A stretch of 53,940 bases of DNA from a virus (taxonomy: Duplodnaviria; Caudoviricetes), in IMG/VR virus record IMGVR_UViG_3300025779_000005, positions 1-53,940 of that record; one strand, 5' to 3'. The notes under the pieces were generated by a model. The model was given only the letters and a program-made list of their open reading frames with translations, did not search any database and was not told the DNA's origin. The translations under genes were made by a program, and so were the position numbers. Below, one piece after another: positions 6,219 to 48,161 of the stretch; positions within the stretch are counted from its first letter, which is position 1, and each line of letters starts with the position of its first letter.

Positions 6219-6638
6219 TTATTTACCGTGCATCTCTGGCTCGTACGAGTGATGAGCTTTTGGCTCCATCCCGTGATGAGCAGAAGAAAGCGGGTTCATG
6301 TTCGAACCAGCAGCGCGACCACCGGATTTACGTGGCTTGCGATCGGCGCGGTGATGAGCTTTCATGCCCATTGCGTGACCGACGTGATGCTTCGCCTTGT
6401 GCTTCTTGATCTTACCGCCGTGCTTACGCTCTTCGGCTTCATGAGCAACATGCGAATGCTCGCCTGCGTAGATATCCTTTGGCGACTCATCGTTATCCCA
6501 ATCGCCTTCGGTAGCAGAACCTTCGTTCACGCTATGATGTTCCTGTACATGACCGCCTTTTGCGTGCTCAGCACGTGGGTGGTGATGATGTACGCCATGT
6601 TCAACGTGCCCATGGTGATGACCTTTGTGACCCTTCAT
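6219..6638 (-). CDS. Extremely His/Lys-rich protein with three xxxGG motifs
   Basis: MKGHKGHHHGHVEHGVHHHHPRAEHAKGGHV...RKHGGKI...RADRKPRKSGGRA; AGGAG RBS. Confidence 0.8.
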   Translation of the reverse strand: MKGHKGHHHGHVEHGVHHHHPRAEHAKGGHVQEHHSVNEGSATEGDWDNDESPKDIYAGEHSHVAHEAEERKHGGKIKKHKAKHHVGHAMGMKAHHRADRKPRKSGGRAAGSNMNPLSSAHHGMEPKAHHSYEPEMHGK

Positions 6639-6648
6639 GGCTCACTCC

Positions 6649-7848
6649 TTAAAAGTTGTAGTACTGGGTTGAGCCAACCAAGCCCGTGGTATACGGGACA
6701 TTGTAGGCCTGCGGGGACTGACGAACGATCAGCTTATTTGCACCACTGCTTGAAGTAGCGGCGTAGGTTCCACGAACGTCTGCAGTCGTAGCCGATGGAG
6801 TGGTACGGTCAGCAGGGAGATAACCCGTTGTAGCAGTAACCAATGTCGTTGCGACCAAAGAGGTTGCATAGTTGACAAGGATATCACCAAACGTGTCCGA
6901 ACGAAGTGGAAGACCAAACACGTCAGCAGTACCGACCGAATAGGCGTGAGTCGTATCAGCCGTGCCACCCGAAAGCACCACAGACTTGATATACTTGAAC
7001 GCTTTTCTGCCGTTAACCGTGCTACCTGCAGTGATCGTAATGGCTTCAGACATTGGATACCCGTAGATATCATAGCCGTTAACCGTTGCGGTTGCGTAAG
7101 TAGCACTTGCTGCTGCCGTAATGCTCACTGCGCGACCAAGAAGAGCTTGTGGGCTCCAGTTGGCCATGCTTAACGTCTGAGCATTGTTTGGAACGGCACA
7201 CTGAGCAGGCGTCTGGTAAGCCAAAGTAACTGTACCAGAAGTTGCCGTCAGGTTGCCCGTAAGCTGGTATGTACCGGTTGTACCTTGCGAAACCGAAGAA
7301 TAGGTGCCGGTTGTCGTAAGCTGCGCGATAATCTGTGAACCAAGGGCAGTTCCTTGCGAAACCGTACCAGTGGTTGCCAAAATTACCATGCCGGGGCCAA
7401 TTGGCATCTGGTTGGTCGAAGTCGTGACCGTCAAAATGCCGTTTGAAACCGTACCAGTTACCGATGCATAAGCATCAAGAGCAAGAACCGTGTCAGTTGC
7501 GCCCGTATCCGCACGAACAAAATTCGTGGAATAATAAACGCCAGTTGTGGAGGAGTTAGAAGTGACCAACGAGAGCGTTGCACTTGTAGGGTTAGCCGAA
7601 GCAACAATTGCTGCCGAAGCCGCCGTATAAGGCACTGCACTCAAGGTCGTGATGTTGTCGAACCCAAGCCAGCCAAAGTCGATGGCTGACTGTGCTTCAC
7701 CCGGAAGATAGGTGTAAGGCAAGCGTGGGTCGAGGAAGCCTGCACCTGCATAAAACAGGGACGAGCCGCCGATATCGGGGTTGTAATCAGCACTTGTGGC
7801 AGCTTGGCCAAAAGCGATGACAGGACCAGTGAATGCGTCTACAGCCAT
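6649..7848 (-). CDS. Virion structural protein (minor capsid/decoration-like) directly downstream of the major capsid gene
   Basis: 399 aa, T/A/S/G-rich; MAVDAFTGPV, V.GYDIYGYPMSE.I, G.KAFKYI, VGTADVFGLP motifs; AGGAGAA RBS. Confidence 0.6.
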   Translation of the reverse strand: MAVDAFTGPVIAFGQAATSADYNPDIGGSSLFYAGAGFLDPRLPYTYLPGEAQSAIDFGWLGFDNITTLSAVPYTAASAAIVASANPTSATLSLVTSNSSTTGVYYSTNFVRADTGATDTVLALDAYASVTGTVSNGILTVTTSTNQMPIGPGMVILATTGTVSQGTALGSQIIAQLTTTGTYSSVSQGTTGTYQLTGNLTATSGTVTLAYQTPAQCAVPNNAQTLSMANWSPQALLGRAVSITAAASATYATATVNGYDIYGYPMSEAITITAGSTVNGRKAFKYIKSVVLSGGTADTTHAYSVGTADVFGLPLRSDTFGDILVNYATSLVATTLVTATTGYLPADRTTPSATTADVRGTYAATSSSGANKLIVRQSPQAYNVPYTTGLVGSTQYYNF

Positions 7849-7860
7849 AGTAACTTCTCC

Positions 7861-8775
7861 TTACGAGGTTGGGAATGAGCCGTAGATTGCGCGCCAGTTA
7901 TAGTAACCGAACGAGTAACGCTCGTAGCCCTTTACAAGCAAGTTATCAGTAACAAAATCCACTTGCATGTCAGTTTCAAACTTAATACGTTCCATATAGG
8001 CAAGGCCATCAATGTTCGTAAGTAAGAACCAAGCATAGGCAGAGGTCAAGAAGTCGTTGACAAGATAACCTTCTGGCAAACCACCAGCAGTCGTCATGAT
8101 CGCGTTGACATCGTTATCTGCAGTACCCGGACGCAATTCAGTCTTGAGAAGACGAATAGCAACTGGCTCCAACTGAGGAGGGATGATCAACTTGCGACCA
8201 CGAGCAAACACCTTCAAGTTGGCCTGATCGCGGAAGTTCGTACGGATTGCGATCATCGCATTCAGCAACGTGGCTTCGTTGAGGTCAACCTGAGTGGTAG
8301 GCGTGTTGGCTACAGAACCGCCATCGATAGGATGAGCAGTGTTGCAGAGAGATACGCCGTCGCCACCGACTGCAGCGTTATACGTCTGAGCCGTGTTGAG
8401 GAGGTTTGCACCGTAGATTTCCTTGGTCTGCTGGAAAGATTCAATCAGGCCGAGGTTCGAAGGCGTAAACTGGGTCTTGTATAGGTTATCGTCGATAGCT
8501 TTACGGGTGATTGCGTAGCCGAGTGCAATTTCCGTATGCTCTTGGTTGTAGATAAAACGTTCACCAGCGCCCGAATCAAACGAGGTCTGACCACCTTCGG
8601 TCTTCAACTGAGCCAAACCGAGGTAACGCATTTCAGCGGTACGTTCGAGGGCCATCTTCGAATCGTGCTTAGTGAAAATCTTGTCGTACTGAGATGGGAT
8701 CATCTCGTACTTGCCTTCAACGCCACGGAGACCGGGGAGCAAAAGGTCTTTAATCTGTGAAAGATTAACAGCCAT
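7861..8775 (-). CDS. Major capsid protein (HK97 fold, Mu gpT-like family)
   Basis: 304 aa; ..KDLLLPGL.., HTEIALGYAITRKAIDDNLY, GGDGVSL..TAHP, LIIPPQL, GTADNDVN, ERYSFGYYNWRAIYGS; follows scaffold and decoration genes. Confidence 0.9.
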   Translation of the reverse strand: MAVNLSQIKDLLLPGLRGVEGKYEMIPSQYDKIFTKHDSKMALERTAEMRYLGLAQLKTEGGQTSFDSGAGERFIYNQEHTEIALGYAITRKAIDDNLYKTQFTPSNLGLIESFQQTKEIYGANLLNTAQTYNAAVGGDGVSLCNTAHPIDGGSVANTPTTQVDLNEATLLNAMIAIRTNFRDQANLKVFARGRKLIIPPQLEPVAIRLLKTELRPGTADNDVNAIMTTAGGLPEGYLVNDFLTSAYAWFLLTNIDGLAYMERIKFETDMQVDFVTDNLLVKGYERYSFGYYNWRAIYGSFPTS

Positions 8776-10181: not shown

Positions 10182-11081
10182 TTAGGATAATTTGCCTTCA
10201 CGGATGAGGGCTTGTTTTTGAACTGCGTATTCACGGTCAGACATACCAAGATCCTTGGCAGCTTCGCGTTCAGCGCGTGAAAGACTAACAACATTTGACC
10301 GCGTACCACCCGTGCCAGTACCAGAACGGGATACAGGAGCTGCAGGTGGGGCAGAACGGCGTTGCGTAGGTGCGGATGCTTCAGACATGGCACTATCTTC
10401 TGAATCGCGAAGACGTGCAGGTTGGATATCGAGCTTTTTCTCAACATAAGAGAAATATTCAGGCGTATCAGCCTTGATACCACGACGCATTGCAGCGTTA
10501 TGAGCATCGATCATGTCAGCTTTAAGAGTTTCGTCCTTAGCATATTCAGGATGAGCCCTAATCCAGTCTGCCGATTCACGTGTAAGTTGCGAAGCAAACG
10601 TTTCTACTGGATCAGATGATGTATTTGCAGGACGAGCTGGCTGTTTTGCCTGTAATTCATACTGTTGCTTACCAGCAACCAACTGGCGCAAGTCCAATTC
10701 AGTCTTGGTCATGTTTGCTTGAATATCAGCAGCGGTATCGTAATCACCAACTGACATAGCATCGCGCAAGTTTTGCTTTAGAATATCTGCATTGCGCTTT
10801 ACCGTATCAATTGCGTTATCAATTAGCTTTAGATTAGTGTCATTGACATCGTTTTTGGCAACAGCAACCTGCTCGTAAGCATCTTTTGCACGTCGTTCTG
10901 CATTTTCACGAGCTTTACGCTCTTCATCAAGACGTGCTTTGAGTTCATTAATGCCATCTTCGACAGTAATTTCACCTTTTGGCTCGTCTTCTACAGGTTT
11001 TACAATAATGTCTTCTTCTTTTGCGGTAGTTTCGATCGGCTCTAGATCTAACTGAAGTTCTGTATCGTCATTCTTTTCCAT
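10182..11081 (-). CDS. Putative capsid scaffolding protein
   Basis: Acidic N-terminus, long coiled coil, W..AHP..., C-terminal VSLSRAEREAAKDLGMSDREYA; position in the head cluster. Confidence 0.7.
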   Translation of the reverse strand: MEKNDDTELQLDLEPIETTAKEEDIIVKPVEDEPKGEITVEDGINELKARLDEERKARENAERRAKDAYEQVAVAKNDVNDTNLKLIDNAIDTVKRNADILKQNLRDAMSVGDYDTAADIQANMTKTELDLRQLVAGKQQYELQAKQPARPANTSSDPVETFASQLTRESADWIRAHPEYAKDETLKADMIDAHNAAMRRGIKADTPEYFSYVEKKLDIQPARLRDSEDSAMSEASAPTQRRSAPPAAPVSRSGTGTGGTRSNVVSLSRAEREAAKDLGMSDREYAVQKQALIREGKLS

Positions 11082-11090
11082 TTTTTATCC

Positions 11091-11525
11091 TTACCAAACA
11101 GCGTCAGGCTGCTGAATACGCGCCCGAACAGTGTAATCTTCTAAAATACGGCATGATTGGCCTTCAATAGCGAGAGCCCATCCATCAGAAGGACGGAATA
11201 CAACCCAATCCCCTTCAGCAATGGACACGCCTTTAAACCATTCGCCTTTTTCATCATTGAATGCAGTAGGTCCAACCTTAAGAACCAGCCCAACCTTGCC
11301 CTGATAGCGGTCTTCTTCAACCGTTTTGTCAGTCAAGATAATGCCGGATTTAGTTTTCTGAGGGCGAATGTAGATGCCAACCAGTATTTGGTTGTTAAAC
11401 AATTCAAAGTCTTTGAGATCTCCGACAGAATTTTTAATTTCTACCGCTGGATCTACATCGTGGTTCATTTTCATAGGAGGCATTTTACTATCCTTAACGC
11501 TTGTCTGTGATATCGTTTGCTTCAT
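11091..11525 (-). CDS. groES: GroES/Cpn10-like co-chaperonin
   Basis: NNQILVG..RPQKTKSGIIL (mobile loop), GKVGLVLKVGP, EGDWVVF; the true start may be an internal Met (MPPMKM). Confidence 0.8.
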   Translation of the reverse strand: MKQTISQTSVKDSKMPPMKMNHDVDPAVEIKNSVGDLKDFELFNNQILVGIYIRPQKTKSGIILTDKTVEEDRYQGKVGLVLKVGPTAFNDEKGEWFKGVSIAEGDWVVFRPSDGWALAIEGQSCRILEDYTVRARIQQPDAVW

Positions 11526-11691
11526 CGATTAATTCAAGAGCAAAAGCGAGCCCCTGAATCATGCCAATCTGACGTTTGTATTCGTCAAAAGAAGCTGCAG
11601 AACCATGGGCAACGTTATCACGAGCGTTTTGGTAGGCATTAGATATCAGTTTTTTCAGTTCTGTTACGAACTGGTCTTTATTCGTTATCAT
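11494..11691 (-). CDS. Small conserved head-cluster protein (65 aa)
   Basis: G.AASFDEYKRQIGMIQGL helical hairpin pattern, directly upstream of the GroES-like gene. Confidence 0.7.
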   Translation of the reverse strand: MITNKDQFVTELKKLISNAYQNARDNVAHGSAASFDEYKRQIGMIQGLAFALELIDEANDITDKR

Positions 11692-11804: not shown

Positions 11805-13754
11805 TTATTTAAGACCCTTTGGTGGTTTCAAACCATAAGCGTCAATTTTTTCCAACCGAGCATTGGCACCGCCTGCACCCGTATCAATAGGATATGCACG
11901 ACCGCCCGATTTGCGCCCCATTGGCATACCCTGCGGAGGCATTGGAGGCATACCCTGTGGACCCATAGGAGGCATTCCGCCCGGACCCATTGGAGGCATT
12001 CCCTGTGGGGGCATACCCGGCATTGGAGTGCGAGGAGAAACAGGTGCGTTAGGAAGCGGAGCGCCGCCCATTAATCCCATTGGACCCTGTGGCTGTCCAC
12101 GCCCACCAATAATAATATTGATATTGGTTTTTCCTTTACCAGCTTTGCCGCCTGCAGCATGAGCATGACGACCGCCAATTGCGCCCGGAATCTTTTCTTT
12201 GCTATTGCCAGAGAAGGTGCCACCGCCGGAATATTTGCCCATGCGACCACCCATGCACATTTTGCATGAACAATCTTCATGATGCATCGCTTTTCCGCCT
12301 GCAGCTTTTCCATACATAAGGTTTGGCTGGTCAAGTTTAATGCGTTGATCTTCAGAACCAGTAGCCATTGCTGCTGCGCGACCCGGAGTCATGCCACGTT
12401 TCATAGAGCCGGGAGCATAACCACGCTCATCCATACGCTGATGCATCTTGGCAATCATCTGATCGATAGCTTCCTTTTTAGACATCGTAGGACCGTCATC
12501 GGAATATTTGCCCATGCTTTCATTTTTACCAGCAGGAACCATAGCGGCATTTTTAGAATAACCACCGCCTAGTTTATTTACAGCAGTTCGAATGCCCCGA
12601 AGTCGGTTTTTTTCTTTCCGTTCATTTACGCCACGGTTAGTGCCTTTAGCTGCCAAGTCCCAAGATGCTGACTGAATATAATCACCAAGGCGGCCCCCAG
12701 AAACTTTATGAGCGCGATCTTTAAACGCATCTTTTTTCAGTACCTTATGCATTAACTTCTTGTCTTCAGCCTCATCAGGATGACTGGTTTTGCCACCATG
12801 CTTACGACCGGTTTTTTCCTTAGTTTCCTTGGAGAACGAAGCAAAATCAGGCTGTTTACCGGTGCGCTTCATGAGTTCATTCATGGTTTTTACGCCAGAC
12901 TTTGCACCCATAAGTTTCTGCATACCCGGTTCCATCGTATCAGATGGGTGCTGCGTACCACGTGGGTACATCGAGCTACGGGTCATTTTCGATACAGCGC
13001 GTTCTACGTCGCCGCCAGTTGCGCGTTTTAGCCAATCAACTTTATGGCCATCCGTCTTGCCGCCATGCTTGCGGTTCTGAGGCAACGAACGCTGATATGC
13101 TTCTTGCTGTCTATCATAGGCAGCTGCGTTAGCGGCGCGCTGTGCATCTGAACCAGTCATAGTTGCCTTTGACCGAGCAATAGCAGCGGCAGCGTTTTTC
13201 ATTGCGGTATCATAATCAGGAGTCTGTGTCTGAGCGCCTGCTACGTTACCTTCTGAACCATCATGGTGTTCACGATGTTTGTGTTTTGCCACACCGCCCT
13301 TATTCATGACCATGCCGGAAGCCTTGGCCAACGAACGATCTTGCATAGAAACAGGGTTGTCACCCAGCGTACCGCCACCGAGCTTATGGATCTTGCCGCC
13401 CTTCTTAAACCCACCAACATGCTTGACGCCTTCACGGACATCATTTGCCATGCGGACATCGCGATTGATTAAGTCATCCAACCAAGGGGCTTTGTGATCT
13501 GCCTTACCACCGGACTTGCGCGGTTTACGATCTGCACGGAATTGGGCTTTTGCACCTTCTGCTTTACCAACAACCTTGCCACCTTTCTTGTATAAACGTT
13601 TTACAAGAGGACGAGCGCCCGTCTTTACACCAGCATTTTCTGGCTCTGGGGGCGTCCAAGTTGAACTGTCAACTTTTTCATGTGGATCAGTAGAAGTAAG
13701 GCGCTCTGCCTTTTTCTTCATTGCATTACGCGCAGTCTTGGCGGCTTCAGACAT
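11805..13754 (-). CDS. Basic, low-complexity polyprotein-like protein with at least 12 xxxGG repeats (649 aa from MSEAAK)
   Basis: Start reassigned to ATG 13754 (GGAGAA RBS); YKKGGKV, RKSGGKA, FKKGGKI, MNKGGVA, RKHGGKT x2, RATGGDV, KVSGGRL, KAAGGKA, HAAGGKA, RKSGGRA and others; Pro/Met/Gly-rich C-terminus. Confidence 0.8.
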   Translation of the reverse strand: MSEAAKTARNAMKKKAERLTSTDPHEKVDSSTWTPPEPENAGVKTGARPLVKRLYKKGGKVVGKAEGAKAQFRADRKPRKSGGKADHKAPWLDDLINRDVRMANDVREGVKHVGGFKKGGKIHKLGGGTLGDNPVSMQDRSLAKASGMVMNKGGVAKHKHREHHDGSEGNVAGAQTQTPDYDTAMKNAAAAIARSKATMTGSDAQRAANAAAYDRQQEAYQRSLPQNRKHGGKTDGHKVDWLKRATGGDVERAVSKMTRSSMYPRGTQHPSDTMEPGMQKLMGAKSGVKTMNELMKRTGKQPDFASFSKETKEKTGRKHGGKTSHPDEAEDKKLMHKVLKKDAFKDRAHKVSGGRLGDYIQSASWDLAAKGTNRGVNERKEKNRLRGIRTAVNKLGGGYSKNAAMVPAGKNESMGKYSDDGPTMSKKEAIDQMIAKMHQRMDERGYAPGSMKRGMTPGRAAAMATGSEDQRIKLDQPNLMYGKAAGGKAMHHEDCSCKMCMGGRMGKYSGGGTFSGNSKEKIPGAIGGRHAHAAGGKAGKGKTNINIIIGGRGQPQGPMGLMGGAPLPNAPVSPRTPMPGMPPQGMPPMGPGGMPPMGPQGMPPMPPQGMPMGRKSGGRAYPIDTGAGGANARLEKIDAYGLKPPKGLK

Positions 13755-13770
13755 AGTATTCTCCAAGGAG

Positions 13771-16728
13771 TTAGTAGCGGCGTCCCGCTTTTGCTGCCAT
13801 GAGGGGGAAGTTAAGTGCTGGCAGCGCCGCACCTACTTTGCCGAGCGCCTGCTCAACAATTGCGTTATTATGCATTGTACGAGAGTTTTTTGCAACGCCA
13901 CCACGAGCGAGTGGTTTTCCCGTATCAGCGTCAACATATTGTATGGAACCGTTGGGAAGAATTACCTTCTTGATTTTCTTTGGCATTTCCCCGCCGCCCG
14001 GTCCTTGCTTTGATAGAGGAATTCCGTATGCGGGTTGTCCTGCAGCACCAGAAGGGGCGGATGGTGTAACATCTAAGTTATCTCTGCCACCGCCACTGAC
14101 GTTTGTGTTAGACCCATCAGGAACACCATATCCACCTGTTGCGGGGGAAGAAGACGGTTGGTTTAAAGCGTTATATTGTGCAGATCCAAGATTATATGAT
14201 GGCGTAAAAGCATCAGTTAAGAAGTTTGAGAACTGATCAATAGGATTAACGTTACCGTTTGCATCCACAATCGAGGGGTTACGTTGCCCCAAAGACATAT
14301 CGGCTTCAGCGGTAACTGGACCATTTAAACCGTACTTTGCATTATATGATGCGATTAAAGCCGGATCTTCAAGCGATTCAACCGGTATATTATTTGTTGT
14401 GGTCGTAGTTGTAGGAGTAGCTTCTGCAGGCGGGGTTGCCGCTGCATATGAGTTCCAATCCAACTGATCAGGCCGAGCGATTGGCATTGGTACGTTAGCT
14501 ACAGCGGGTGCAGGCGGTGTTTCTTGAACAGGTGCGGGGGCTTCAATCGGTGCAGGGGCAGAAGCGGGTCCGGGGGTTGCCAAAGATACATCGGCATTTG
14601 GAGCGGGAGTTACAGGACCAAACGCAGTGTTCATTACTGACAATCCAGCTTTGGCTTGTGCGGATGCTGCTTTGGCTGCTGCGGTATCTTCATCAGGCTG
14701 CTTTTGTCCCGGCGTAGCAATATAAACGTTTGCATTTGGCGCTGGGGTAGTTGTCGATTCGGGTTGCATAAATGCAGGTTCAACAAGATTTTGTTCTAAC
14801 GTTGATTCATAATGTTGTGGAGGTGCAGCTGGTTCTGGAGCAGGGGTTGGGTTGCTAAGGTCAGGAAGACGAGCGCCAGTTGTTCCACTGATTGCGGTTC
14901 CTGCTGCAGCGGCTGCTTCGTCTTTAGCTTTTTCTGCCGCGAACTGATCAAGAGTTGCCTGAGAAACAGGAGCGGGTTGAACTACTTGTGGTTCTTGTAT
15001 TGTTGATGGTGTTGTCTGAGTAAAATCAGCTAATGGTTTTGCTTCTGCAGGAGAAATTAATGCATTTCCGATAGCACTTCCAACTGAAGATGCACCACTA
15101 GCTATTGCATTACCAATCGAATCCAAAGCGGACTGGTCTTTAGATTCTTGAGCAGTGGTTGTAGCTTGCTGCTGGTCTTGTTCTGCTTGTTGACGAGCGG
15201 AGGCGGAGTTTTCTTGCTGCTGCTGCTGCTGTTGCTGGTCCTGCTGCTGGTCTGGCTGAGATTGATCTGCTTGCTGCGCCTCGTTGCCGCGTGGATCTCC
15301 GCCACTTTGGTCACCGCCGCCGCCGCCTTCTCCACCGCCACCACCACCGTCTCCACCACCCCCGCCATCGCCGTCACCATCGTAGGAAGGCAATCCTGCT
15401 GGACCAATGTGATGCTCATAGCGAACGCCAGAGTTATGGATGTCTGCTTTTTTTAAAAGTTCAGCTTCTTCTTTTGTAATATATGCCAGATGAGTTGACA
15501 CATGATTGGGCGCACTATGCCACCGAACAGGGACGTTAACCCGTGCTTTACTCATTTTTTCTGGTGTATTGCCAATAGGTTGATCCATTTTAAGATCATC
15601 TTTGTGCCAAATAGCACCCTCAACCTTGCCGCCCTTTTTATAAGCAACACGTCCTCCACTGGCGCGTTCGGCCCGCTCTTCAATGTTAAAATCATTTAAC
15701 CGTTGACGGATTGTATTTTGCACCACGTCTTCCTGTTCAGAAACAGGTTTGTGCCAATGAATGGTGCCTGATTTGTCAAGATCTTTTGCCTCATCAATGA
15801 CGCTATCTGGGATTAACCCGTATTCTTTTGGCAATGGATGCAGAAGCGCGTGTGGCTGTAGCGGTGTGTCGCCCATGCCAAGATCATCTTCGTGCCAGAT
15901 TGCACCTTCAACCTTGCCACCTTTTTTGTAGGCTACGCGACCGCCCTGCTCGTATTTCCGCTTAATGCTGACACGGTTGTGGTCAAATACGACGTAGTTG
16001 TGGGTTGGCTGATCCGCTGCACTACGGGATCCTGCATCAAGATACTTAATGCCTTTTAAACCTGATTCTAATAATTTTTTTGCTGTTAAAGCAGAGTATG
16101 CTTGTCCACCACCTTGATTAACAAGTTCTTTTCTAGATTGATGAAACATTTTTTGATGAATTTCATCGCCAGTAAGATTAGATGGAAAATTAGATAAAGC
16201 ATTTTGAACGTGCTCACTCTGCTCACTCAATGGTCTATCCCAATCCAAAAAGTGATCAGGATGCGCGTGGATGGCGACCTCGTACATGTGTCCGGGGCTT
16301 TTCATTTTTCTAACGGCATCTGAAGCACCAACTTGGTTATTGTAAATTTCTTGTGCGGCTTTTTTGCCTCTTTCGTTATGTATCCATTCTTTATCTAATG
16401 AAGATTTAATGTCATCCAACCAATTATCAAATCCTTTTCCATGAAAGTTGTTTTGACTAAATTGAAATGCAAGCATATTGGCGGCATCATTAGAAAGATT
16501 ACCATGCGTTTTAGCAATATCTTGTAATCCATCAATATTTCTTATTACAGAATTTTTATACCCTTCCGCCACAGGCTCATGCTCGGCAAAATACAACCCA
16601 TGCCCATACGCCTGTGCGCCCTCGCCAGTGCCAATCTTGGACGTGTCAAACTGTTCAAAGTCGTGCGGAGAGCCGTGGTAGGCTTGGATAGGCTGCACAC
16701 CCTTGGCGAGGTCGAGAGGGTCCATCAT
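13771..16728 (-). CDS. Polyvalent protein: N-terminal ADP-ribosyltransferase-like domain, GG-motif linkers, HLAYIT..GLPSY domain, long low-complexity tail
   Basis: AYHGSPHDFEQFDTSKIGTGEGAQAYGHGLYFAE...GIKYLD...NYVVFD resembles ART-like domains of phage polyvalent proteins; duplicated GGRVAYKKGGKVEGAIWH.DDL.M; poly-G, poly-Q and P/A-rich segments. Confidence 0.7.
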   Translation of the reverse strand: MMDPLDLAKGVQPIQAYHGSPHDFEQFDTSKIGTGEGAQAYGHGLYFAEHEPVAEGYKNSVIRNIDGLQDIAKTHGNLSNDAANMLAFQFSQNNFHGKGFDNWLDDIKSSLDKEWIHNERGKKAAQEIYNNQVGASDAVRKMKSPGHMYEVAIHAHPDHFLDWDRPLSEQSEHVQNALSNFPSNLTGDEIHQKMFHQSRKELVNQGGGQAYSALTAKKLLESGLKGIKYLDAGSRSAADQPTHNYVVFDHNRVSIKRKYEQGGRVAYKKGGKVEGAIWHEDDLGMGDTPLQPHALLHPLPKEYGLIPDSVIDEAKDLDKSGTIHWHKPVSEQEDVVQNTIRQRLNDFNIEERAERASGGRVAYKKGGKVEGAIWHKDDLKMDQPIGNTPEKMSKARVNVPVRWHSAPNHVSTHLAYITKEEAELLKKADIHNSGVRYEHHIGPAGLPSYDGDGDGGGGGDGGGGGGEGGGGGDQSGGDPRGNEAQQADQSQPDQQQDQQQQQQQQENSASARQQAEQDQQQATTTAQESKDQSALDSIGNAIASGASSVGSAIGNALISPAEAKPLADFTQTTPSTIQEPQVVQPAPVSQATLDQFAAEKAKDEAAAAAGTAISGTTGARLPDLSNPTPAPEPAAPPQHYESTLEQNLVEPAFMQPESTTTPAPNANVYIATPGQKQPDEDTAAAKAASAQAKAGLSVMNTAFGPVTPAPNADVSLATPGPASAPAPIEAPAPVQETPPAPAVANVPMPIARPDQLDWNSYAAATPPAEATPTTTTTTNNIPVESLEDPALIASYNAKYGLNGPVTAEADMSLGQRNPSIVDANGNVNPIDQFSNFLTDAFTPSYNLGSAQYNALNQPSSSPATGGYGVPDGSNTNVSGGGRDNLDVTPSAPSGAAGQPAYGIPLSKQGPGGGEMPKKIKKVILPNGSIQYVDADTGKPLARGGVAKNSRTMHNNAIVEQALGKVGAALPALNFPLMAAKAGRRY
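15585..15946 (-). repeat. Duplicated 23-codon block GGRVAYKKGGKVEGAIWH(E/K)DDL(G/K)M (about 15877-15946 and 15585-15658)
   Basis: Near-identical peptide with many synonymous codon differences. Confidence 0.85.
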
Positions 16729-41549: not shown

Positions 41550-42887
41550 TTAAATGTGTCTATTGGCTACAGCTAAAGCCTTGGCAACAGTGTTGTCATC
41601 AAGGTTGAGAAGGGGCTCTGTTTCCTTGCTCTGTTCTTTTTTAATACTATCCACCATATTTATCAAGGCTTGAGCTTTTAACGAAACAGAATCAATAGTG
41701 CGCCCACCAGATGCCCTTGGCGCGGGTGAACTATCATCAACTACGGGTTCAATCGTATCAATGCTATTCATTGGTTTAGGTTGAGCTGAAGCAGGTTGGC
41801 TTTGTTTTTGCTGTTCTGCAGCGTTGCTCATGGCTTGCTCAAATGGAGATGCAACTTGTGTTGCGGTCTGAGCGGTTTTTCCTGCGACATCTGCAGCAGT
41901 GCCAACAGGAGATCCGGCTACCTGCCCCATTATATAAGCAGCTTTACCCATTGTTTTAGGTGATTGAATCGCAGCTTGACCCGCCAAAGGAATAAGATGA
42001 GCTGCAGCCATTACGGGTTGGCCAGTTGCAAGATGATAACCCGCAGATGCCAAAGCTGTTGCTGCGCCACTCCCCGCTAAAACTTGAGAAAACCCGCCAT
42101 GGGCCAAAGTATCACTTAATTGAGAACCGGCCACCGCATATGGGTGTAATGGATGCCCCGCCCATTGAGGATCAGAAACAGGTAGAAGTCCGGGCTCACC
42201 TTTTGCGTAACCATTGAAAACGTTTTTAACATCTTCAGCAGTATATCCTGCAGGAGCAACGCCTTTCCCAACATCATACGCAGTTTCATATGTTGAAACT
42301 GGAACACCGCTTTCTGCTGAAACAAAACCTTTTGCAACGTTAGAACCAAGGTTTCCAATACCTTTAACAGTTCCAACTACAGCTTTTGTAGGGTCAGTGG
42401 CATAGCTTACAGCCCTTAAAGCCTTAGATGTAAGGTTTGCTGCACGACCTACCGTACTAGCTGCTCCGAGGACTTCTGCCCCTGCACCAAGGGCGCTTGC
42501 TCCTGCGGTAAACGGAATAGAGGCAGCCGTTAGAACGGTAAACGGATCATTGTATAACGTGCGGTAAAACTCATCTTTAGAAGAAAATGGTTGGATTAGA
42601 GCATTGAATGCAGCTTGATCTTTTGGGTTTGTCGGATAACCAAGAGCGCCCTTTGCTTTGGAATATGCTCCATAGCCAACATTACCAAGGGCCGATGCTG
42701 TTTCACTCCAATTGGCAGGATTAAGAGCATGTGCAGTGCCAGCAAGATTTTGAACCGCACTAGGACCAATATTCCCCGCCACGCCGCTCCAATATTCCCT
42801 ACTTCCCATCGTTGCTGGATCCTTAGCAGAAGTCGCAGACACAGGTTCTATAGAAGTTATTTGGTTTTTAGCTTTGGGTAGGGTCAT
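41550..42887 (-). CDS. Putative internal virion / DNA-ejection protein
   Basis: Ala/Gly-rich with hydrophobic segments; C-terminal RASGGRT followed by ...LLNLDDNTVAKALAVANRHI. Confidence 0.6.
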   Translation of the reverse strand: MTLPKAKNQITSIEPVSATSAKDPATMGSREYWSGVAGNIGPSAVQNLAGTAHALNPANWSETASALGNVGYGAYSKAKGALGYPTNPKDQAAFNALIQPFSSKDEFYRTLYNDPFTVLTAASIPFTAGASALGAGAEVLGAASTVGRAANLTSKALRAVSYATDPTKAVVGTVKGIGNLGSNVAKGFVSAESGVPVSTYETAYDVGKGVAPAGYTAEDVKNVFNGYAKGEPGLLPVSDPQWAGHPLHPYAVAGSQLSDTLAHGGFSQVLAGSGAATALASAGYHLATGQPVMAAAHLIPLAGQAAIQSPKTMGKAAYIMGQVAGSPVGTAADVAGKTAQTATQVASPFEQAMSNAAEQQKQSQPASAQPKPMNSIDTIEPVVDDSSPAPRASGGRTIDSVSLKAQALINMVDSIKKEQSKETEPLLNLDDNTVAKALAVANRHI

Positions 42888-42899
42888 AACTTTTACCTG

Positions 42900-45800
42900 T
42901 TATTTTATGTTGAAGTAACGAAGTATCGGAGCGCCATAGGTATTTGCATAATACTTTTTAGAAGCATCGCTCATTTTATTAGCACTTCCGCTTGTAGCTA
43001 CTTCAAAAGCACTTTTCTTTGCTTCGTTTGGTTGACCTTTGTTAACAGTTACTTGATCTTTAAACATCTGTTCAAGCATTTGTTTTTCAGAATCATAGTA
43101 AGCTGGATCATAATGATTATTAAACGAGTTAGTAGCTTGTTCGCCTGTGGCTCTACTAAAATCACCGCCTAAAGATCCGTTAGTTGGTTTAGATGCATTT
43201 TGCCATTGGCGGAAATATTCTTGTTTATCAAGTTCGCGCTGCTGCTGAACCATGATGTCTGCCATAAGTTTTGCTTTTCCGTCTGGCGAATTTGACAACG
43301 ATGGGAAGTTTTGGATCAACGACTGCAATGCCGCATAAGAATGCTGGTCAAGGGCTTGTGCCTGTTGTCCCTGAAGACGAGAAAGAACCTTGTTTACTTC
43401 TTCGGCGCTTGCAAGATTTTCACCATTCCAAATGTTGCCTTTCATTCCAATTGCATGTGCAAGGCTGTTAATTTTTTGTTCTGCCTGTTCAAACAATGGA
43501 GCATATGCGCCAGATCCAAGGGCAGTATCAGAAGGGATCTCTGCCAAAGAATTTCCTAATGCATATATGTTCTGCTGTTGGCCCTTCAAAGAATCAGCCA
43601 ATGCTGACTGCTTCGCAAAAAGGTTTGCAGATAAACGTTGATTACGAATATCTTCAGGCTCTAATGCCACTTTCTTTTGAGCGTCTTGTGCAGCGGCAAC
43701 TTCTTCTGGCGTCAAACTAACCGGAAGAGCATTAACAGGAGTTCCAACAATTGGCTGTTGTTTCGTAGTGCTTGCAGCCTCAGGGTGCGCTTGTACGTAT
43801 TGAGAGGTCAAGCGTGGATCCATTTGAAGCTGACCCTTTTGCATAAGGTCTGTTGCATCCTGTAAGTTATAAGGGCGCATAATTCCATCTGGACCAATAC
43901 CGATGATGCTATCGACGCCATTAATCTTAACAATAAGTTTGGATGGGATACCTGCCATCGTGGATGCAGCAGCAGCATTTGTAGCGGAAATTTCTGCCTT
44001 CTGACGCTGCAATTGTGGGTAAGCCTGAGCTGCACCCGCGAGACCTTCAAGAGCTGCCGCCCCAAGGAATGGACTGCGGGAACTAGCCATGGTGCCAAGA
44101 CCTGTAGCAATGGTTCCCCAGAATGTTGAATCCTGCAGTTCTTTAGGAACACCCAATTTGTTTGCAAGGTAATCAAATGCACCCGGTTCTGGCGCTGCCG
44201 GTGTTGGCAAATATGTTTTAGCGCGAGGAACAAGGCCACCTTCTGGAGCAGACGCATCTGGAGCAGGTTGTGCAGTCGTGTCAGAAGAATCTGCAGCCGC
44301 AAGGGCTGTCTTAGTAGCAGGAAGATCTGGCCCATCCGTAACAACTTTATTGCCGGCGCCCAATCCGGTTGAAACAACTGGCGTATCAGAACCATCAGTT
44401 AAGCCAGCGTTGAATTTTTTTACGTAAGAAGGAACGGTTGTCCCTAATTGATCTGAAGCGTTCCCAGCTTGCGCACGAGGTTTTCCAGAGAACCAAACAG
44501 ACGCGGCATCTTCTGGCGTGCCATATCTGTCCAGCGCCTTACTAAAATGATGTGTAAACACTTGATCTTGCGCTTCTGGGCTTGCCAAGAAATCTTCCGT
44601 AGACATGGGTTTACCAAGGGCTTCTTGAGTCCACGACGGAATATTTGAACCCATTACTTGGTATTTGCCATATCCACGATCGCCCGTCTTTGTAGCTGGA
44701 CCAAGAGCGCCATAATTATTGCTGCTTTCGATTTCTCCAATGACTGGACCGTACTTGGTCAAAACATCATCATCCGCCGTGCCGCCATCATCATAGCCCG
44801 TGCGACCGCCGTACGCTTTTGGAACCATGGCGGCGATGGCCATAAGATCTTTCATTGTTGGATCTTGCATAGAACCAGATGGCGCACTTGATTGCAGCAA
44901 TTTATTTTGCATTGCATCATTTTGATCAGGGATATCCAATGTTCCGCCAGCAGTGTCCGAATACAATCCTTCAGGCGTAGGGCTTCCACCTGCTGCAAGG
45001 CCAGTACGACCGCCACGGGCATTAGGGGTTGGTTCTGCCGGAGTTACTGTATCAATGTTATCTGATTGCGAAGGAGGCATAGGAGTTCCTGCAGGAGCAG
45101 GATTATTGGGCAAAGGATTAAATACAGTTGGCGCTACTTGTTTTAGCCAATCGGTTCCCTTCGTAAATGCAGCGTTTCCTGCATCCCAAGCTTTACCAAT
45201 TTTTTGAGCGCGCTCAACTGCACCTAAACCTTCTTCCATTGCAGACGGCCCAAGCGGATCTGGCTTACCTGCAGGTCTTAAACCACCAACTGGCAAATTA
45301 GCTTCTGGAACGCGACCATGAACACCAATGCCCGTTGATAGGTTTCTAGCGGAAGGAATCGCATTACTACTAGCGTTAGCGTACATCGCTTGGTGTCGTG
45401 CAATAATATTTTGAAGAGAATTTGGGTCATAGTAGTCAGCATAACCACCGTCAGCGTAACCTTCGCCAGCGTGTTGCATCCCAACCATTCCACCTTCGGA
45501 CACTAAACCGCCATGCTGATGTGCTGGACGAGAAGCCTTATCGTAATCAACTGTCTTATAACCGCCAGCCAAGCCAACTGCTTCTGGATGAACTTTTTCA
45601 ACGTCCTGAGCCATAAAGCCGATATGGGTCTGCTCGTTTGGATCCCCCTTATACTTAAACTTGTAAATTGGAAGACCGTTATTTGCAGTACCGACGCGCT
45701 TAATATCTTCTTTAAGGCGACGATCGGAGAAGAACGACATTGGCTGCGTTGCAGTGGTAGTTGAACCGGAAAGAGCACCTGTACCTTCTGCAATGTTGGC

Positions 45801-46997
45801 CAAGAACTGAGCAGTCTGGAATGGGTAAGCCTGTTGCTGCAAGAACTGATTATAAAGAGCCGTATTGCCAGCCTGTTGCGTCTGTTGACCAAGAGTACCT
45901 GCACCAAGTTGTGCTTGAGCGCCTTGCAGACCCGCAGTTTGAGCGCCAGCCCCAAGAGTTCCCTGTTGGGCACCAGCGGCTAATGATAATGGAACACCTT
46001 GCAATGCAGCATTCTGTGCAGCCGTTCCCAAAGCACCATATTGGCCAGCCGCAGTCATACCCTGACCTGCAATATTTGCAATATTAGCTGCGCCTGCCTG
46101 TTGGGCCTGACCTGCGTTGATAAGAGCCTGCTGTGCCTGACCGCCAAGTTGTCCGTATTGATTAGCAAGATTGCCCATCTGTCCGTACATAGCACCCTGC
46201 TGACCCGCAATACCTGCTTGTGCTCCAAGACCGGATAGATAATTTTGAGCTGCAGCCTGATAGCCAGTATTAGCCATCTGCCCAAGAGTTTGGCCCATAG
46301 CAAGGTTCTGCTGACCCATAAGAGCAGCTTGAGAAATATTGCCGCGATCCCCACCAAAAGCACCAGAACTAATTGCATTTCCCTGCAACTGTTGCTGCTG
46401 TTGTCTATTTTGATTTTGCATCATAGCAGCGGTTGAACCCATTGCATTCTGCACATAAGGATTCATATAGCCTTGTACGCCAGCTTGATAGTTTGGAGCA
46501 TTATAACCTTGCGAAATATTTCCAAGGCCACCAATGGTCTGGCCAGTTCCCATAGCCGCACCCATAGTTCCCGCTTGAGCAACTTGGTACCCTGGCTGTG
46601 CGGCATATGTAGCTTGTTGCAAGGGCGTCATTGCTGCAGCAGCTAACCCAGAGGCTTGCTGGTATTGTGGAATAGCACCCGCTGCAATTGTTTGAGCACC
46701 ACTGAAATAAGGCTGAGCTACATTTTGTCCTGCATTAATTTGGTTTATAGCAGATCCAGTTGTATTCATGCCAGCTTGGTAGCCCGTCTGAGCCGCATTC
46801 GCGTATTGATTTATATTACCAATTGCTGTGTTTTGTTGTTGATTTAAAGGCGCGACAAAGGAATTAGGATCACTGCTATATTCTTTAAATGGAGTACTTG
46901 CCGCGCCCTGTGCCGAAGCATTAACGGAGTTATACCGAGCCAACACCTCAGGAGGTATTTGTACACCAGACGTTGTTGTGCCGGTCTTGCCACCCAT
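42900..46997 (-). CDS. Large ejection polyprotein: Gln/Ala/Gly-rich pilot region, peptidase S74 (intramolecular chaperone) domain, lysozyme-like muralytic domain, helical C-terminus
   Basis: MGGKTGTTT start; AFGGDR; SDRRLKEDI..G..IY.F.Y...GFMAQDVE...PEAV...VDY (S74); IES..NY....GDRGYGKYQVM..N...W (lysozyme-like); seven xxxGG motifs in linkers. Confidence 0.8.
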   Translation of the reverse strand: MGGKTGTTTSGVQIPPEVLARYNSVNASAQGAASTPFKEYSSDPNSFVAPLNQQQNTAIGNINQYANAAQTGYQAGMNTTGSAINQINAGQNVAQPYFSGAQTIAAGAIPQYQQASGLAAAAMTPLQQATYAAQPGYQVAQAGTMGAAMGTGQTIGGLGNISQGYNAPNYQAGVQGYMNPYVQNAMGSTAAMMQNQNRQQQQQLQGNAISSGAFGGDRGNISQAALMGQQNLAMGQTLGQMANTGYQAAAQNYLSGLGAQAGIAGQQGAMYGQMGNLANQYGQLGGQAQQALINAGQAQQAGAANIANIAGQGMTAAGQYGALGTAAQNAALQGVPLSLAAGAQQGTLGAGAQTAGLQGAQAQLGAGTLGQQTQQAGNTALYNQFLQQQAYPFQTAQFLANIAEGTGALSGSTTTATQPMSFFSDRRLKEDIKRVGTANNGLPIYKFKYKGDPNEQTHIGFMAQDVEKVHPEAVGLAGGYKTVDYDKASRPAHQHGGLVSEGGMVGMQHAGEGYADGGYADYYDPNSLQNIIARHQAMYANASSNAIPSARNLSTGIGVHGRVPEANLPVGGLRPAGKPDPLGPSAMEEGLGAVERAQKIGKAWDAGNAAFTKGTDWLKQVAPTVFNPLPNNPAPAGTPMPPSQSDNIDTVTPAEPTPNARGGRTGLAAGGSPTPEGLYSDTAGGTLDIPDQNDAMQNKLLQSSAPSGSMQDPTMKDLMAIAAMVPKAYGGRTGYDDGGTADDDVLTKYGPVIGEIESSNNYGALGPATKTGDRGYGKYQVMGSNIPSWTQEALGKPMSTEDFLASPEAQDQVFTHHFSKALDRYGTPEDAASVWFSGKPRAQAGNASDQLGTTVPSYVKKFNAGLTDGSDTPVVSTGLGAGNKVVTDGPDLPATKTALAAADSSDTTAQPAPDASAPEGGLVPRAKTYLPTPAAPEPGAFDYLANKLGVPKELQDSTFWGTIATGLGTMASSRSPFLGAAALEGLAGAAQAYPQLQRQKAEISATNAAAASTMAGIPSKLIVKINGVDSIIGIGPDGIMRPYNLQDATDLMQKGQLQMDPRLTSQYVQAHPEAASTTKQQPIVGTPVNALPVSLTPEEVAAAQDAQKKVALEPEDIRNQRLSANLFAKQSALADSLKGQQQNIYALGNSLAEIPSDTALGSGAYAPLFEQAEQKINSLAHAIGMKGNIWNGENLASAEEVNKVLSRLQGQQAQALDQHSYAALQSLIQNFPSLSNSPDGKAKLMADIMVQQQRELDKQEYFRQWQNASKPTNGSLGGDFSRATGEQATNSFNNHYDPAYYDSEKQMLEQMFKDQVTVNKGQPNEAKKSAFEVATSGSANKMSDASKKYYANTYGAPILRYFNIK

Positions 46998-46998
46998 T

Positions 46999-47493
46999 TT
47001 AATGCTCCGTTATATTCTCGTCGTGTCCAGTTTGGACATTGTATAGGAAAAAAGCCCCAGCAGGAGGCCCGAATTGTCGTTCATAGAGGCGAACTTTTGC
47101 TTCAGTCCGATGGTTCGAAAGCACCCCAATGATAAGTGGAATGTTAAGGTCGTCGGCTACTTTCTTTGAGAACTCACATAGTTTACGAGCGCGTCCACCT
47201 TTTGCACTACGAAACTCAGGGTCAACAAAGATAGCCTTTTCTTCAAGCATCCATTCATCAGAATACCACATCTGTGACGTGCGGAGAAGGACCGCTCCTT
47301 CAATCTTCTTTCCGGGTTCCCCAATGATCCCGACTAACCCCTGCCAAAGATATAATGCGGGCTTGATCATGCCCAACATCTTCATAGGATTTACGCCTTT
47401 TATGCCGTTTTCTTCCCATGCCTTTAGTGCCAAATCTAGCATTGCCGTTTCATCTTCTGGCGTGCCAAGACGTATTTTCAATTCTTCTTTCAT
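46999..47493 (-). CDS. GNAT-fold acyltransferase
   Basis: IRLGTPED, E..IFVDPEFR...GRARKL, LYERQFG; adjacent to the ejection-protein gene, as in many podoviruses. Confidence 0.75.
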   Translation of the reverse strand: MKEELKIRLGTPEDETAMLDLALKAWEENGIKGVNPMKMLGMIKPALYLWQGLVGIIGEPGKKIEGAVLLRTSQMWYSDEWMLEEKAIFVDPEFRSAKGGRARKLCEFSKKVADDLNIPLIIGVLSNHRTEAKVRLYERQFGPPAGAFFLYNVQTGHDENITEH

Positions 47494-48161
47494 TAATCCC
47501 TCTTCGGTCCCGGAAGTTTCTTCAATGTATCAATCGTTTTATTACGATACCCCTTAACAAACTCATCAAGAATTTGGTGTCCGTGGTCTATATCCCCATG
47601 CCCAAGATGTGTAACATCTTCTGGAGAAATTACATACTCACCGCCTGCAGCAACTATTTCAACTGGAGTTTTTCCACCTGCTGCACGGATACCGTATGGT
47701 TTACCGCCTGCATAAGGATTTTCGCCTTCGGCATATGGTTGTTTTTTCTCTTGGAAATATGGTTTGGAAGAGAACATTCGGCGAGCAATCTTGAACCCTG
47801 CCATTGTGTTGCCTTCACCCATAGCGCCAATAATATCAGCGGGAATCACGTAAGACCCAGATTTAACATTCATGGGTAGATGATCTGTACGTCCCGCAAC
47901 TGGGCTATGAATTGGACCCTCATGAACCATGGGCTGACCCTCTAATGGGTAGCTAGGCAATGGAACAGAGATGTCCGGCTTACGATAATCCAATGGGCCT
48001 GTTCGCGTTTCAGTGAACTGATTTGGGCCACCTGCTGCACGAGAATGACGAGCGGTATTTAAAGCAGCAGCAATTGCTTGTTTCTGCGGATGTCCGGCAT
48101 GAATCATTTCACTGATATTTGCACTGATTGTTTTCTGTGATGTACCTTTGTGCAGTGGCAT
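47493..48161 (-). CDS. GG-motif protein with duplicated G(S/E)YVI..D module
   Basis: MPLHKG.SQKTISANISE...QKQAIAAALNTAR, RAAGG, GRTDHLP..V..GSYVIPADII..MGEG, RAAGG, GGEYVISPEDV..LG.G. Confidence 0.7.
   Translation of the reverse strand: MPLHKGTSQKTISANISEMIHAGHPQKQAIAAALNTARHSRAAGGPNQFTETRTGPLDYRKPDISVPLPSYPLEGQPMVHEGPIHSPVAGRTDHLPMNVKSGSYVIPADIIGAMGEGNTMAGFKIARRMFSSKPYFQEKKQPYAEGENPYAGGKPYGIRAAGGKTPVEIVAAGGEYVISPEDVTHLGHGDIDHGHQILDEFVKGYRNKTIDTLKKLPGPKRD

Follow-up and report, generated by a model that had tools for sequence, protein, structure and literature searches.

A recurrent diglycine motif in seven late proteins of an uncultured freshwater phage, a candidate packaging tag

Late genes of the phage and the diglycine motif

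The window analysed here is the whole of one virus record, IMGVR_UViG_3300025779_000005 (Duplodnaviria; Caudoviricetes), a stretch of 53,940 bases estimated to be 92% complete, and the genes on it mark a podovirus-like phage. Seven of its late proteins (p437, p985, p649, p139, p445, p1365 and p222) share a seven-residue motif built around a diglycine (GG), which a first-pass annotation of this DNA had read as a cleavage signal of virion polyproteins. The first late block, on the minus strand, runs from the small and large terminase genes through the portal, p437, p985, p649, a GroES-like protein, a coiled-coil scaffold-like protein and two small conserved genes to the gpT-like major capsid protein, p399, the His-rich p139 and the tail genes. 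A second late block (41550-53915) holds p445, p1365, a GNAT-like protein, p222, a 769-residue structural protein, an SU10-type adaptor, an endolysin and a holin. Feature coordinates are given in Table 1. The data presented below show a genuine and conserved motif, restricted to a coherent set of proteins.

The strict pattern used throughout, [KRHYFML]xxGGx[VIAT], is that of the first-pass annotation. It occurs 28 times in the seven proteins, compared with about 3.9 copies expected from 2000 shuffles of the whole proteins. When 5000 shuffles were confined to 30-residue windows, a control that keeps local composition, the mean was 4.19 copies (standard deviation 2.0) and the maximum 12. Both controls rule out an artefact of composition. 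The other 29 proteins, which include the capsid, portal, terminase and replication proteins, contain 7 copies against about 6 expected. The earlier statements that the motif recurs about 30 times and forms no comparable clusters in those proteins were thus confirmed. All copies quoted in the annotation are present in the genes named, but KAYGGRN, NARGGRT, LAAGGSP and RAAGGPN miss the strict pattern at one position.

Taken singly, the seven proteins were not equally enriched. Enrichment was strong (P ≤ 0.0006) for p649 (12 copies versus a shuffle mean of 0.98), p985 (5 versus 0.62) and p139 (3 versus 0.16), marginal (P about 0.05) for p437 (2 versus 0.33) and p1365 (4 versus 1.24), and absent for p445 (1 versus 0.31, P 0.34) and p222 (1 versus 0.24, P 0.21). 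Hence, the case for p445 and p222 rests on conservation of the motif in their homologues. The bare GG dipeptide was enriched only in p649 (24 versus 13.4) and p985 (26 versus 9.7), the latter count being raised by a poly-Gly run. At the DNA level, the copies use differing synonymous codons for Gly, Lys and Tyr. This indicates that the constraint acts on the protein and not on the DNA, and a DNA-level cause such as a recombination hot spot or a slippery site is therefore ruled out.

The shape of the motif was examined in 759 distinct GG contexts from relatives. A large or aromatic residue stands three positions before the GG (-3, K/R/Y/F/M/H), followed at -2 by K (31%) or A (16%); on the other side, +1 is K/R/G/E and +2 is A/V/T/I. 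Information is even on both sides of the GG (-3, -2, +1 and +2 each carry 0.38-0.50 bits), and Gly is enriched again at -8/-7 and +8/+9. Neighbouring copies are also most often eight residues apart (77 of the 646 intervals in 210 motif-bearing open reading frames (ORFs) of relatives), in agreement with the earlier remark that copies often come in tandem pairs. Two further ideas were dropped. A basic-then-acidic order within tandem pairs was found in 8 of 49 distinct 8-spaced pairs, versus 36 basic-basic ones. Mimicry of the GroES mobile loop was set aside as a loose-pattern coincidence: the hydrophobic triplet that follows GG in the GroES loop is the part that binds GroEL, and the cargo copies do not have it. 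The GroES-like protein of the phage itself reads KTKSGIIL, in its presumed mobile loop, where relatives have KTKGGII, KTAGGII or KTKGGLI.

Table 1. Motif-bearing late proteins, their parts and neighbouring late genes in the window
Feature	Coordinates	Strand	Remarks
p139	6219..6638	-	small, His-rich, basic (isoelectric point 9.1), 3 motif copies
Major capsid protein, gpT-like	7861..8775	-	phrog_371; PF25209; candidate reader of the motif
Coiled-coil scaffold-like protein	10182..11081	-	assigned by position and composition; no PHROGs or Pfam family matched; kept in relatives
GroES-like co-chaperonin	11091..11525	-	Cpn10, E 9e-9; end of cargo zone
p649 (hub)	11805..13754	-	12 strict copies, Cys cluster, Pro/Met/Gln-rich stretch, tail C
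Motif RKSGGRA and tail C of p649 (residues 614-649)	11808..11915	-	
p985 (polyvalent protein)	13771..16728	-	ART-PolyVal-like domain, two tandem pairs around a 70-residue module, low-complexity region, last motif and tail A
Last motif LARGGVA and tail A of p985 (residues 940-985)	13774..13911	-	same tail ends many otherwise unlike proteins
Tandem pair 2 of p985, RASGGRV-A-YKKGGKV (residues 355-369)	15622..15666	-	
Tandem pair 1 of p985, YEQGGRV-A-YKKGGKV (residues 259-273)	15910..15954	-	predicted disordered
Folded ART-like domain of p985 (residues ~10-258)	15955..16701	-	last predicted strand ends one residue before first motif
p437	16725..18038	-	first protein after portal; two modules edged by KADGGDV and KAAGGTA; tail B
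Motif KAAGGTA and tail B of p437 (residues 398-437)	16728..16847	-	tail recurs in relatives
Portal protein	18040..20358	-	phrog_1216, E 1e-26; cargo zone starts directly downstream
p445	41550..42887	-	variable body, one motif RASGGRT (residue 391), conserved 55-residue tail D
p1365	42900..46997	-	giant internal-virion-type protein: Q/A/G-rich N-part, Peptidase_S74, modules parted by motif copies
Peptidase_S74 of p1365 (residues 424-474)	45576..45728	-	intramolecular chaperone, self-cleaving; E 3e-13, 50.3 bits versus cut-off 22
p222	47493..48161	-	helical-hairpin N-domain, two disordered linkers each with RAAGG, duplicated beta-beta-alpha core

Proteins that carry the motif

The hub protein p649 is Gly-rich and basic, with an isoelectric point (pI) of 10.2, and is predicted to be disordered throughout (Atlas model: predicted local distance difference test score (pLDDT) 0.43, predicted template modelling score 0.14). 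At least 1103 homologues were found at E ≤ 0.001, all of them metagenomic and without Pfam domains; 8000 candidates were scored per homologue search, and this count, like that of the capsid protein given below, is a lower bound. The 120 homologues listed, of at least 1103, all carry 9-15 copies, and in all 120 the first site is essentially fixed as Y/F-K-K-G-G-K-V. In an alignment of 39 diverse members, whose mean column identity is 21%, 9 of the window protein's 12 sites have a GG that is either invariant or kept in at least 90% of the sequences. The motif is thus kept in homologues, a point that the first-pass annotation had left open. The same 39 homologues share a His/Cys cluster (around 12255-12284, consensus HH.DCTCKMC.GG), which could bind metal or form disulfides.

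The small protein p139 has the stretch ADRKPRKSGG in common with p649, and its homologues in two related loci (L052 and L030) carry 3 and 5 copies respectively. It opens with a dense His run (MKGHKGHHHGHVEHGVHHHH..). Judging from these features, p139 may be a metal-binding mini-version of the hub.

p985 gave an ART-PolyVal match of 25.4 bits, below the cut-off of 31.2. It is 40-48% identical to the ART regions of relatives, whose own ART-PolyVal regions were detected with E 2e-52, 2e-26 and 3e-15, four stretches lying in one ORF. An AlphaFold2 (AF2) model of residues 1-455 has an ART-like fold with strands up to residue 258, plus further modules. As far as about residue 259, most of the model scores a pLDDT of 50-85, interrupted by short dips under 50, and from residue 260 on the score is below 50; the first tandem pair starts at residue 259, in a region with pLDDT below 30. 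Within this pair, G262, G263 and V265 are nearly invariant (alignment A1). The same arrangement is seen in relatives: an ART-PolyVal domain at residues 741-898 has copies on either side at 712 and 915, and another at 784-941 is flanked by those at 754 and 958. In some relatives, matches to p985 are confined to residues 910-985. Ahead of this end, from about 15229-15408 on to about 14000, lie a Gly/Asp/Glu run (DGDGDGGGGGDGGGGGGEGGGGGD), a Gln run and some 400 Pro/Ala/Thr-rich residues, a low-complexity stretch that forms a very long spacer between the enzyme modules and tail A.

In p437, the stretch delimited exactly by the two motifs (residues 209-402) is found again as the N-terminal part of a different protein, 1117 residues long, in another locus (L029). 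More generally, of 493 internal homology breakpoints in 111 unique polyvalent ORFs, 25% were no more than 5 residues away from a motif, versus 4% at random positions, a figure biased upward, the motifs themselves being able to extend or end BLAST alignments. The breakpoint statistics, the ART-PolyVal positions and the AF2 models of p985 and p222 agree with the earlier claim that copies sit at domain edges. When predicted domain boundaries are compared with motif positions, the copies fall in low-confidence linkers right after folded parts.

p985 and its relatives combine several domains, ART-PolyVal included, in one polypeptide, and the genes of p437, p985 and p649 directly follow the portal gene, a layout found in 22 loci. 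Because of these ART-PolyVal domains, the portal-side position and the rampant domain shuffling, p985 and its relatives are classed, by sequence, as polyvalent proteins.

The second late block contains the remaining three proteins. In p445, the motif is present in 17 of 17 unique homologues, and wherever a match starts at query residue 391 the subject begins at its own motif (8 of 8 rows).

The p1365 homologue in MW202675.1, an uncultured phage, was annotated by its depositors as 'internal virion protein D'. In p1365, the motif HQHGGLV (residue 493) follows the Peptidase_S74 domain; many homologues have a copy in the region after this domain and more copies between the later modules. The Peptidase_S74 match (residues 424-474) is above the curated cut-off and is the sole predicted self-cleavage of the system. 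The domain is located in the middle of the 1365-residue protein, whereas its usual place is C-terminal, in tail spikes and fibres, and one self-cleavage is predicted, which would free the N-terminal 423 residues. Peptidase_S74 cuts at its own Ser site, not at GG. The first-pass annotation had also spoken of a muralytic enzyme. This could not be upheld: residues 740-900 gave only chance rows (E ≤ 1) against solved structures, no muralytic family was found in p1365 with Pfam or NCBIfam, and the label goes back to an E-S...GxYQ-like pattern and the depositors' name only.

For p222, at least one copy is kept in 49 of 60 unique homologues. In its AF2 model (pLDDT 66), the two RAAGG copies fall in low-confidence linkers (residues 37-75 and 136-163), and a third GG (AAGGEY) forms a hairpin turn within the folded core at high pLDDT. 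The core is an internal duplication (LPMNVKSGSYVIPADII... and VEIVAAGGEYVISPEDV...), each half being strand-turn-strand-helix, and its invariant residues include GRTDHLP, PAD, GEGN and GH..LD. The N-terminal 42 residues match a widespread family of small phage proteins (phrog_2423). In searches of named phages, p222 was found in full length only in MW202675.1, and the comparison of motif-bearing with motif-free genomes marks it as a clade-specific conserved protein. A profile search against solved structures gave only a chance-level match to ribosomal S3 (E 0.21), Foldseek against the Protein Data Bank (PDB) gave nothing at E ≤ 0.001, and a wide VIA-align search reached a best Z of 3.2, with no known fold. 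Two Atlas leads, DUF2213 (template modelling score 0.25-0.28) and a crAss cargo family (0.76), were set aside as too weak.

Gene position and family suggest that all seven proteins are most likely carried in the particle. This is in line with the earlier view of the motif as a non-random feature found only in head-internal or ejection-type proteins, namely the polyvalent ART proteins by the portal and the giant resembling 'internal virion protein D'.

Conservation in related phages and C-terminal tails

Portal relatives were found in 360 freshwater viral contigs, of which 80 were kept (72-85% identity). The nearest named record, MW202675.1, has a portal identity of 65%. Cultured relatives are distant (about 30% portal identity) and comprise the pelagiphages HTVC027P and HTVC023P, the roseophages CRP-901 and CRP-902, Caulobacter phage RW and Planktothrix phage Pag-Yong1; these distant phages keep the gene order portal, variable zone, GroES, scaffold, two small genes, capsid.

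Nineteen of the 80 loci, picked for long downstream sequence, were inspected. The ORFs after the portal were motif-bearing in 19 of 19, the GroES and scaffold ORFs had no copies, and the terminase, capsid and portal ORFs had 0-3, the portal copies being conserved LGFGGTA/MR.GGTA sites. Across all 80 loci, 106 unique ORFs of at least 150 residues lie between the portal and GroES or the contig end; 47 were incomplete and were dropped. Of the 59 complete ones, 57 have one or more strict copies; the two without include an out-of-frame ORF within the hub gene. A copy lies 29-53 residues from the C-terminus in 50 of these 59 ORFs and within the first 25 residues in 6.

The last copy precedes one of four conserved classes of C-terminal tail, and the protein bodies ahead of the tails are entirely unlike among relatives. 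Tail A, that of p985, reads GGVAK...HN.AIVEQAL...LPAL...LMAAKAGRRY; tail B (p437) reads GG.V...IPGVHI.T...GEP.FTG.L; tail C (p649) reads RKSGGRAYPIDTGAGG..RLEKI.AYGLKP; tail D (p445) has 55 residues. In the 22 loci with a whole portal-GroES interval, the gene order by tail was A-C in 10 and B-A-C in 3, as in this genome, and in the remaining 9 one tail escaped a crude pattern. In MW202675.1 (locus L082, 16307-18526), one polyvalent ORF ends in ..HARGGVAK, with its stop seven residues past the beginning of its last motif, and shares 4 bases with the following ORF. Its tail seems to be lost or split off.

The distant cultured relatives, among them RW, CRP-902 and Pag-Yong1, do not have the motif, except for isolated pairs in Pag-Yong1 and HTVC027P. 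Megablast of window positions 11000-21000 against cultured phages gave no match, nor did tblastn with p649 at 1e-5; a local tblastn without the low-complexity filter recovered the p649 homologue in MW202675.1. Apart from these isolated pairs, the nucleotide and protein searches of cultured phages found none that carries the motif.

Several other features of the genome were noted. The capsid protein is nearly fixed (the best 120 of at least 7669 database matches are 91-100% identical), unlike the cargo genes 3 kb away, which are wholly dissimilar among those relatives. A Gly/Thr/Ser-rich tail-fibre gene on the minus strand runs off both window ends (1-3309 and 52800-53939), its two pieces having a common repeat (..ERMRIDSSGN/KVGIGT..); the record therefore looks circularly permuted, nearly complete and cut inside that gene. 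An EIERLR-type heptad appears once or twice in each of five adjacent small ORFs on the minus strand (26019-27807: 26019-26651, 26662-26901, 26898-27170, 27167-27466 and 27463-27807), which form a paralogous early-gene family, the first and last being near-identical over their N-terminal 55 or so residues. Further early paralogue pairs lie at 28458-30310, also on the minus strand: 28897-29298 and 29453-29881 both end in ..VKVE.D.EEGEGL, 28458-28649 and 29809-30078 share DW.PIET.PKD...HWMKLPEPPK, and 29247-29456 and 30080-30310 are both Cys/Trp-rich.

Possible functions and likeness to known systems

The reading that we favour, at a probability of roughly 0.4, is that the motif is a multivalent packaging tag. 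It is preferred because the valency of p649, the 8-residue spacing, the conserved Tyr, Lys and Cys residues and the near-C-terminal motif match the working principle of the carboxysome scaffold CsoS2 and of encapsulin cargo peptides. The motif caps the C-terminal edge of each exchangeable module, singly or as an 8-spaced pair, and would act as a weak assembly tag: a part of the procapsid would bind the copies and so draw in the hub and the tagged modules before DNA packaging. The binding part could be the inner face of the capsid, the scaffold or the portal, or p649 could bridge to these. The tails would set the fixed place of each protein, and modules that bear their own tags could shuffle freely between proteins. 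A capsid-docking tag had been named as an alternative in the first-pass annotation, and it fits at least as well as cleavage.

Several observations weigh against the packaging tag. The presence of the cargo in the virion is read from gene position and family, and the binding partner is still a candidate only. In charge, the flanks vary from strongly basic (YKKGGKV, RKSGGRA) to acidic (YADGGEV, FDDGGDV), which would be unusual for a single binding pocket, and even the C-proximal copy stops short of the terminus, where encapsulin peptides lie. Distant cultured phages keep the same head-gene order without the motif, so the shared head proteins do not need it. The upward bias of the breakpoint figure counts on this side as well. 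A complex prediction with the capsid, the scaffold-like protein and p649 residues 40-135, run without controls, scored 0.01, the mark being 0.32, and speaks neither way on binding.

A more specific proposal, somewhat doubtful in our view, is a peptide code like that of encapsulins and carboxysomes, in which p649 and the effector modules would dock to the lumen of an HK97-fold procapsid, to the scaffold or to the portal; in a variant no less novel, the tags would then be cut by a protease of an unknown family.

A processing site proper, the reading of the first-pass annotation, seems unlikely. Tagged polyproteins would be packed and then cut at or after the GG by an unrecognised phage or host protease, and the cuts would free effectors, release the payload from the C-terminal tail and chop p649 into basic peptides. 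The copies do occupy sites at which cleavage would serve a purpose, namely the edges of modules and the positions immediately before the conserved anchoring tails, and the 6 of 59 ORFs with an early copy would have a leader of fewer than 25 residues. Cutting p649 after each strict copy gives, by computation, 13 pieces of 7-166 residues and pI 8.6-12, which resemble the basic core peptides of adenovirus, and p1365 already holds the self-cleaving Peptidase_S74. However, the head module has the layout of a protease-free assembly such as those of P22 and T7: the scaffold is separate, and the capsid protein has no delta domain. Pairs spaced by eight residues and 9-15 copies per hub are also odd for cleavage sites.

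The site itself was compared with the viral ones in which GG followed by a cut is an established maturation signal. The consensus is (M/I/L)XGG↓X for adenain, as given in passages of PMC4246237, and GG↓X for pS273R of African swine fever virus (ASFV), where the residue after GG is often hydrophobic according to passages of PMC10308890. As in these systems, the GG core of the phage motif is found in several internal or core proteins of a double-stranded DNA virus, and the sites lie between functional pieces. In contrast, the hydrophobic or aromatic anchor of the phage motif stands three residues before the GG instead of two as in (M/I/L)XGG, which would place the large residue at P5 and not P4. 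The residue after the GG, P1', is mostly K/R/E/D/G, thus largely charged where that of ASFV is hydrophobic. The phage copies are tandem and numerous, and the hosts of the compared viruses are eukaryotic. The GG-type consensus ((M/I/L)XGG↓X or GG followed by a hydrophobic residue) was not matched in the 759 GG contexts.

The search for an enzyme covered 39 window proteins with Pfam, 20 with PHROGs and 8 with NCBIfam, and Peptidase_S74 was the only peptidase family found. In particular, Pfam and PHROGs detected no classical prohead protease, as the first-pass annotation had said, and no embedded zincin-like or other peptidase domain in the polyvalent proteins; the Pfam scans revealed no cysteine protease of the adenain/pS273R clan in this 92% complete window, and neither a C39 domain nor an ABC transporter. 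Among all window ORFs of at least 50 residues, HExxH occurs three times, each time in an out-of-frame ORF and never in a real gene. Among 111 cargo ORFs of relatives, 10 contain it, without a common context, and no metalloprotease signature recurs in these ORFs. p222 gave no protease-like fold in the Foldseek and VIA-align searches described above. Finally, comparing the gene content of the window and MW202675.1 with that of RW, CRP-902 and parts of HTVC027P and Pag-Yong1 brought out no candidate enzyme that separates motif-bearing from motif-free genomes. With Peptidase_S74 as the only peptidase found, a site unlike the adenain and ASFV consensus and tandem 8-spaced copies, the claim of cutting after GG finds no positive evidence here.

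Rather improbable is a passive joint, a GG turn between two short strands that would cap each module and stop adjacent domains from disturbing one another during folding, unfolding for ejection and refolding. Such a joint would persist because recombination there gives viable chimeras, with no dedicated reader or enzyme. A precedent for a junction motif exists in VENN of CdiA, which marks swap points in polymorphic toxins. The position of the copies at module edges in flexible regions would suit such a joint, the symmetric information around the GG fits a hairpin, the AAGGEY of p222 is modelled as a hairpin turn, and the 70-residue module of p985 is flanked by two nearly identical joints. However, since p649 is predicted to be disordered, the motif there cannot be a linker between folded domains, and yet its GG pairs are invariant across homologues. 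Conserved islands in disorder are typically binding or modification sites, and their presence in p649 means that a purely passive linker does not explain this protein. Moreover, the primase-helicase, the tail fibre, the 769-residue tail protein and the DEAD helicase of the same genome are multidomain proteins without the motif, copies 5-20 residues from an N-terminus separate nothing, and the codons differ between copies, so that DNA microhomology is weak.

A nucleic-acid or condensate sticker, in which the basic copies (R/K-x-x-GG-R/K, with Tyr or Phe) would act like RGG or YG repeats and p649 would condense with DNA or itself inside the head while tagged cargo partitions into it, is very improbable: p649 and p139 are indeed basic and Gly-rich, p649 is predicted disordered with a high, conserved valency and many aromatic-plus-basic copies, and the repeats and tyrosines of CsoS2 are reported to drive condensates (PMC11365436), but the copies in polyvalent proteins are often acidic (p985 has pI 5.3 and p1365 pI 5.4), no DNA-binding family was detected with Pfam or PHROGs, and the idea overlaps the packaging tag without excluding it.

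The form of the motif in phage cargo is not described before in the literature searched: no paper was found that reports it in phage proteins, the supplements of PMC5512222 lying outside the search. Short targeting or junction motifs and polyvalent proteins are known kinds, and the diglycine form is what is new. How podoviruses select cargo without a T4-type targeting sequence and protease is poorly understood, and so is the tolerance of polyvalent anti-host proteins to constant domain shuffling. Here, one 7-residue signature is common to all candidate cargo of an abundant uncultured freshwater clade, and under either reading, tag or cleavage site, it makes anonymous metagenomic ORFs a defined system. 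Cleavage at the motif would imply a new protease family and the first GG-type maturation system in a phage. If it is a loading tag, it would provide a sequence rule that predicts injected proteins and a means of bringing foreign proteins into phage heads, and any domain that acquired the tag would be packed and injected.

Among known systems, the T4 capsid targeting sequence is a short peptide on unrelated internal head proteins, one of them an ADP-ribosyltransferase. This sequence and the prohead-protease sites of T4 and phiKZ are N-terminal and are cut by a gp21-type protease at Glu-containing sites. The signal described here differs in being internal or C-proximal and Gly-based, and no such protease was found in the window with Pfam or PHROGs. 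The double-glycine leaders cut by C39 peptidases are N-terminal, end in GG and go with export by a C39-domain ABC transporter, in contrast to the internal or C-proximal phage copies.

The polyvalent proteins of Iyer et al. 2017 are, like the kin of p985, large multidomain proteins encoded beside the portal, with ART-PolyVal domains and extreme shuffling. Their delivery with the DNA was predicted, and release of their domains by proteolysis through embedded peptidases was proposed, in passages of PMC5512222, in which a zincin-like peptidase is the commonest domain (36% of the set). This peptidase domain is absent here, and the main text of PMC5512222 contains neither the word 'glycine' nor the word 'linker', so that it does not mention this joint motif.

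The disordered scaffold CsoS2 has (V/I)(T/S)G triplets at eight-residue intervals, which hold on to the carboxysome shell through many weak contacts, and also conserved Tyr, Lys and Cys pairs (passages of PMC11365436). p649 is likewise predicted to be disordered, with many copies of a tiny Gly motif, most often spaced eight residues apart, and conserved Tyr, Lys and Cys. The motif is GG-based instead of (V/I)(T/S)G, the container would be an HK97-fold capsid and not a bacterial microcompartment shell, and binding by p649 is only proposed. p649 matched no Pfam family at E ≤ 0.01, that of CsoS2 included, and the likeness is one of working principle only.

Encapsulin cargo peptides, for example GSLxIGSLK and GGDLGIRK, the latter with GG at its start, dock on the inside of a shell of the HK97 fold, which offers one site per subunit (passages of PMC10960027). 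They are single and at the extreme C-terminus, whereas the phage copies are multiple and the last one lies 29-53 residues from the end. In both systems, however, a short peptide of Gly plus hydrophobic residues near the C-terminus of the cargo follows a flexible stretch and is carried by unrelated cargo proteins. A packaging tag, if that is what the motif is, could thus be a functional bridge between phage capsids and encapsulin cargo loading, and would explain the free shuffling of polyvalent proteins.

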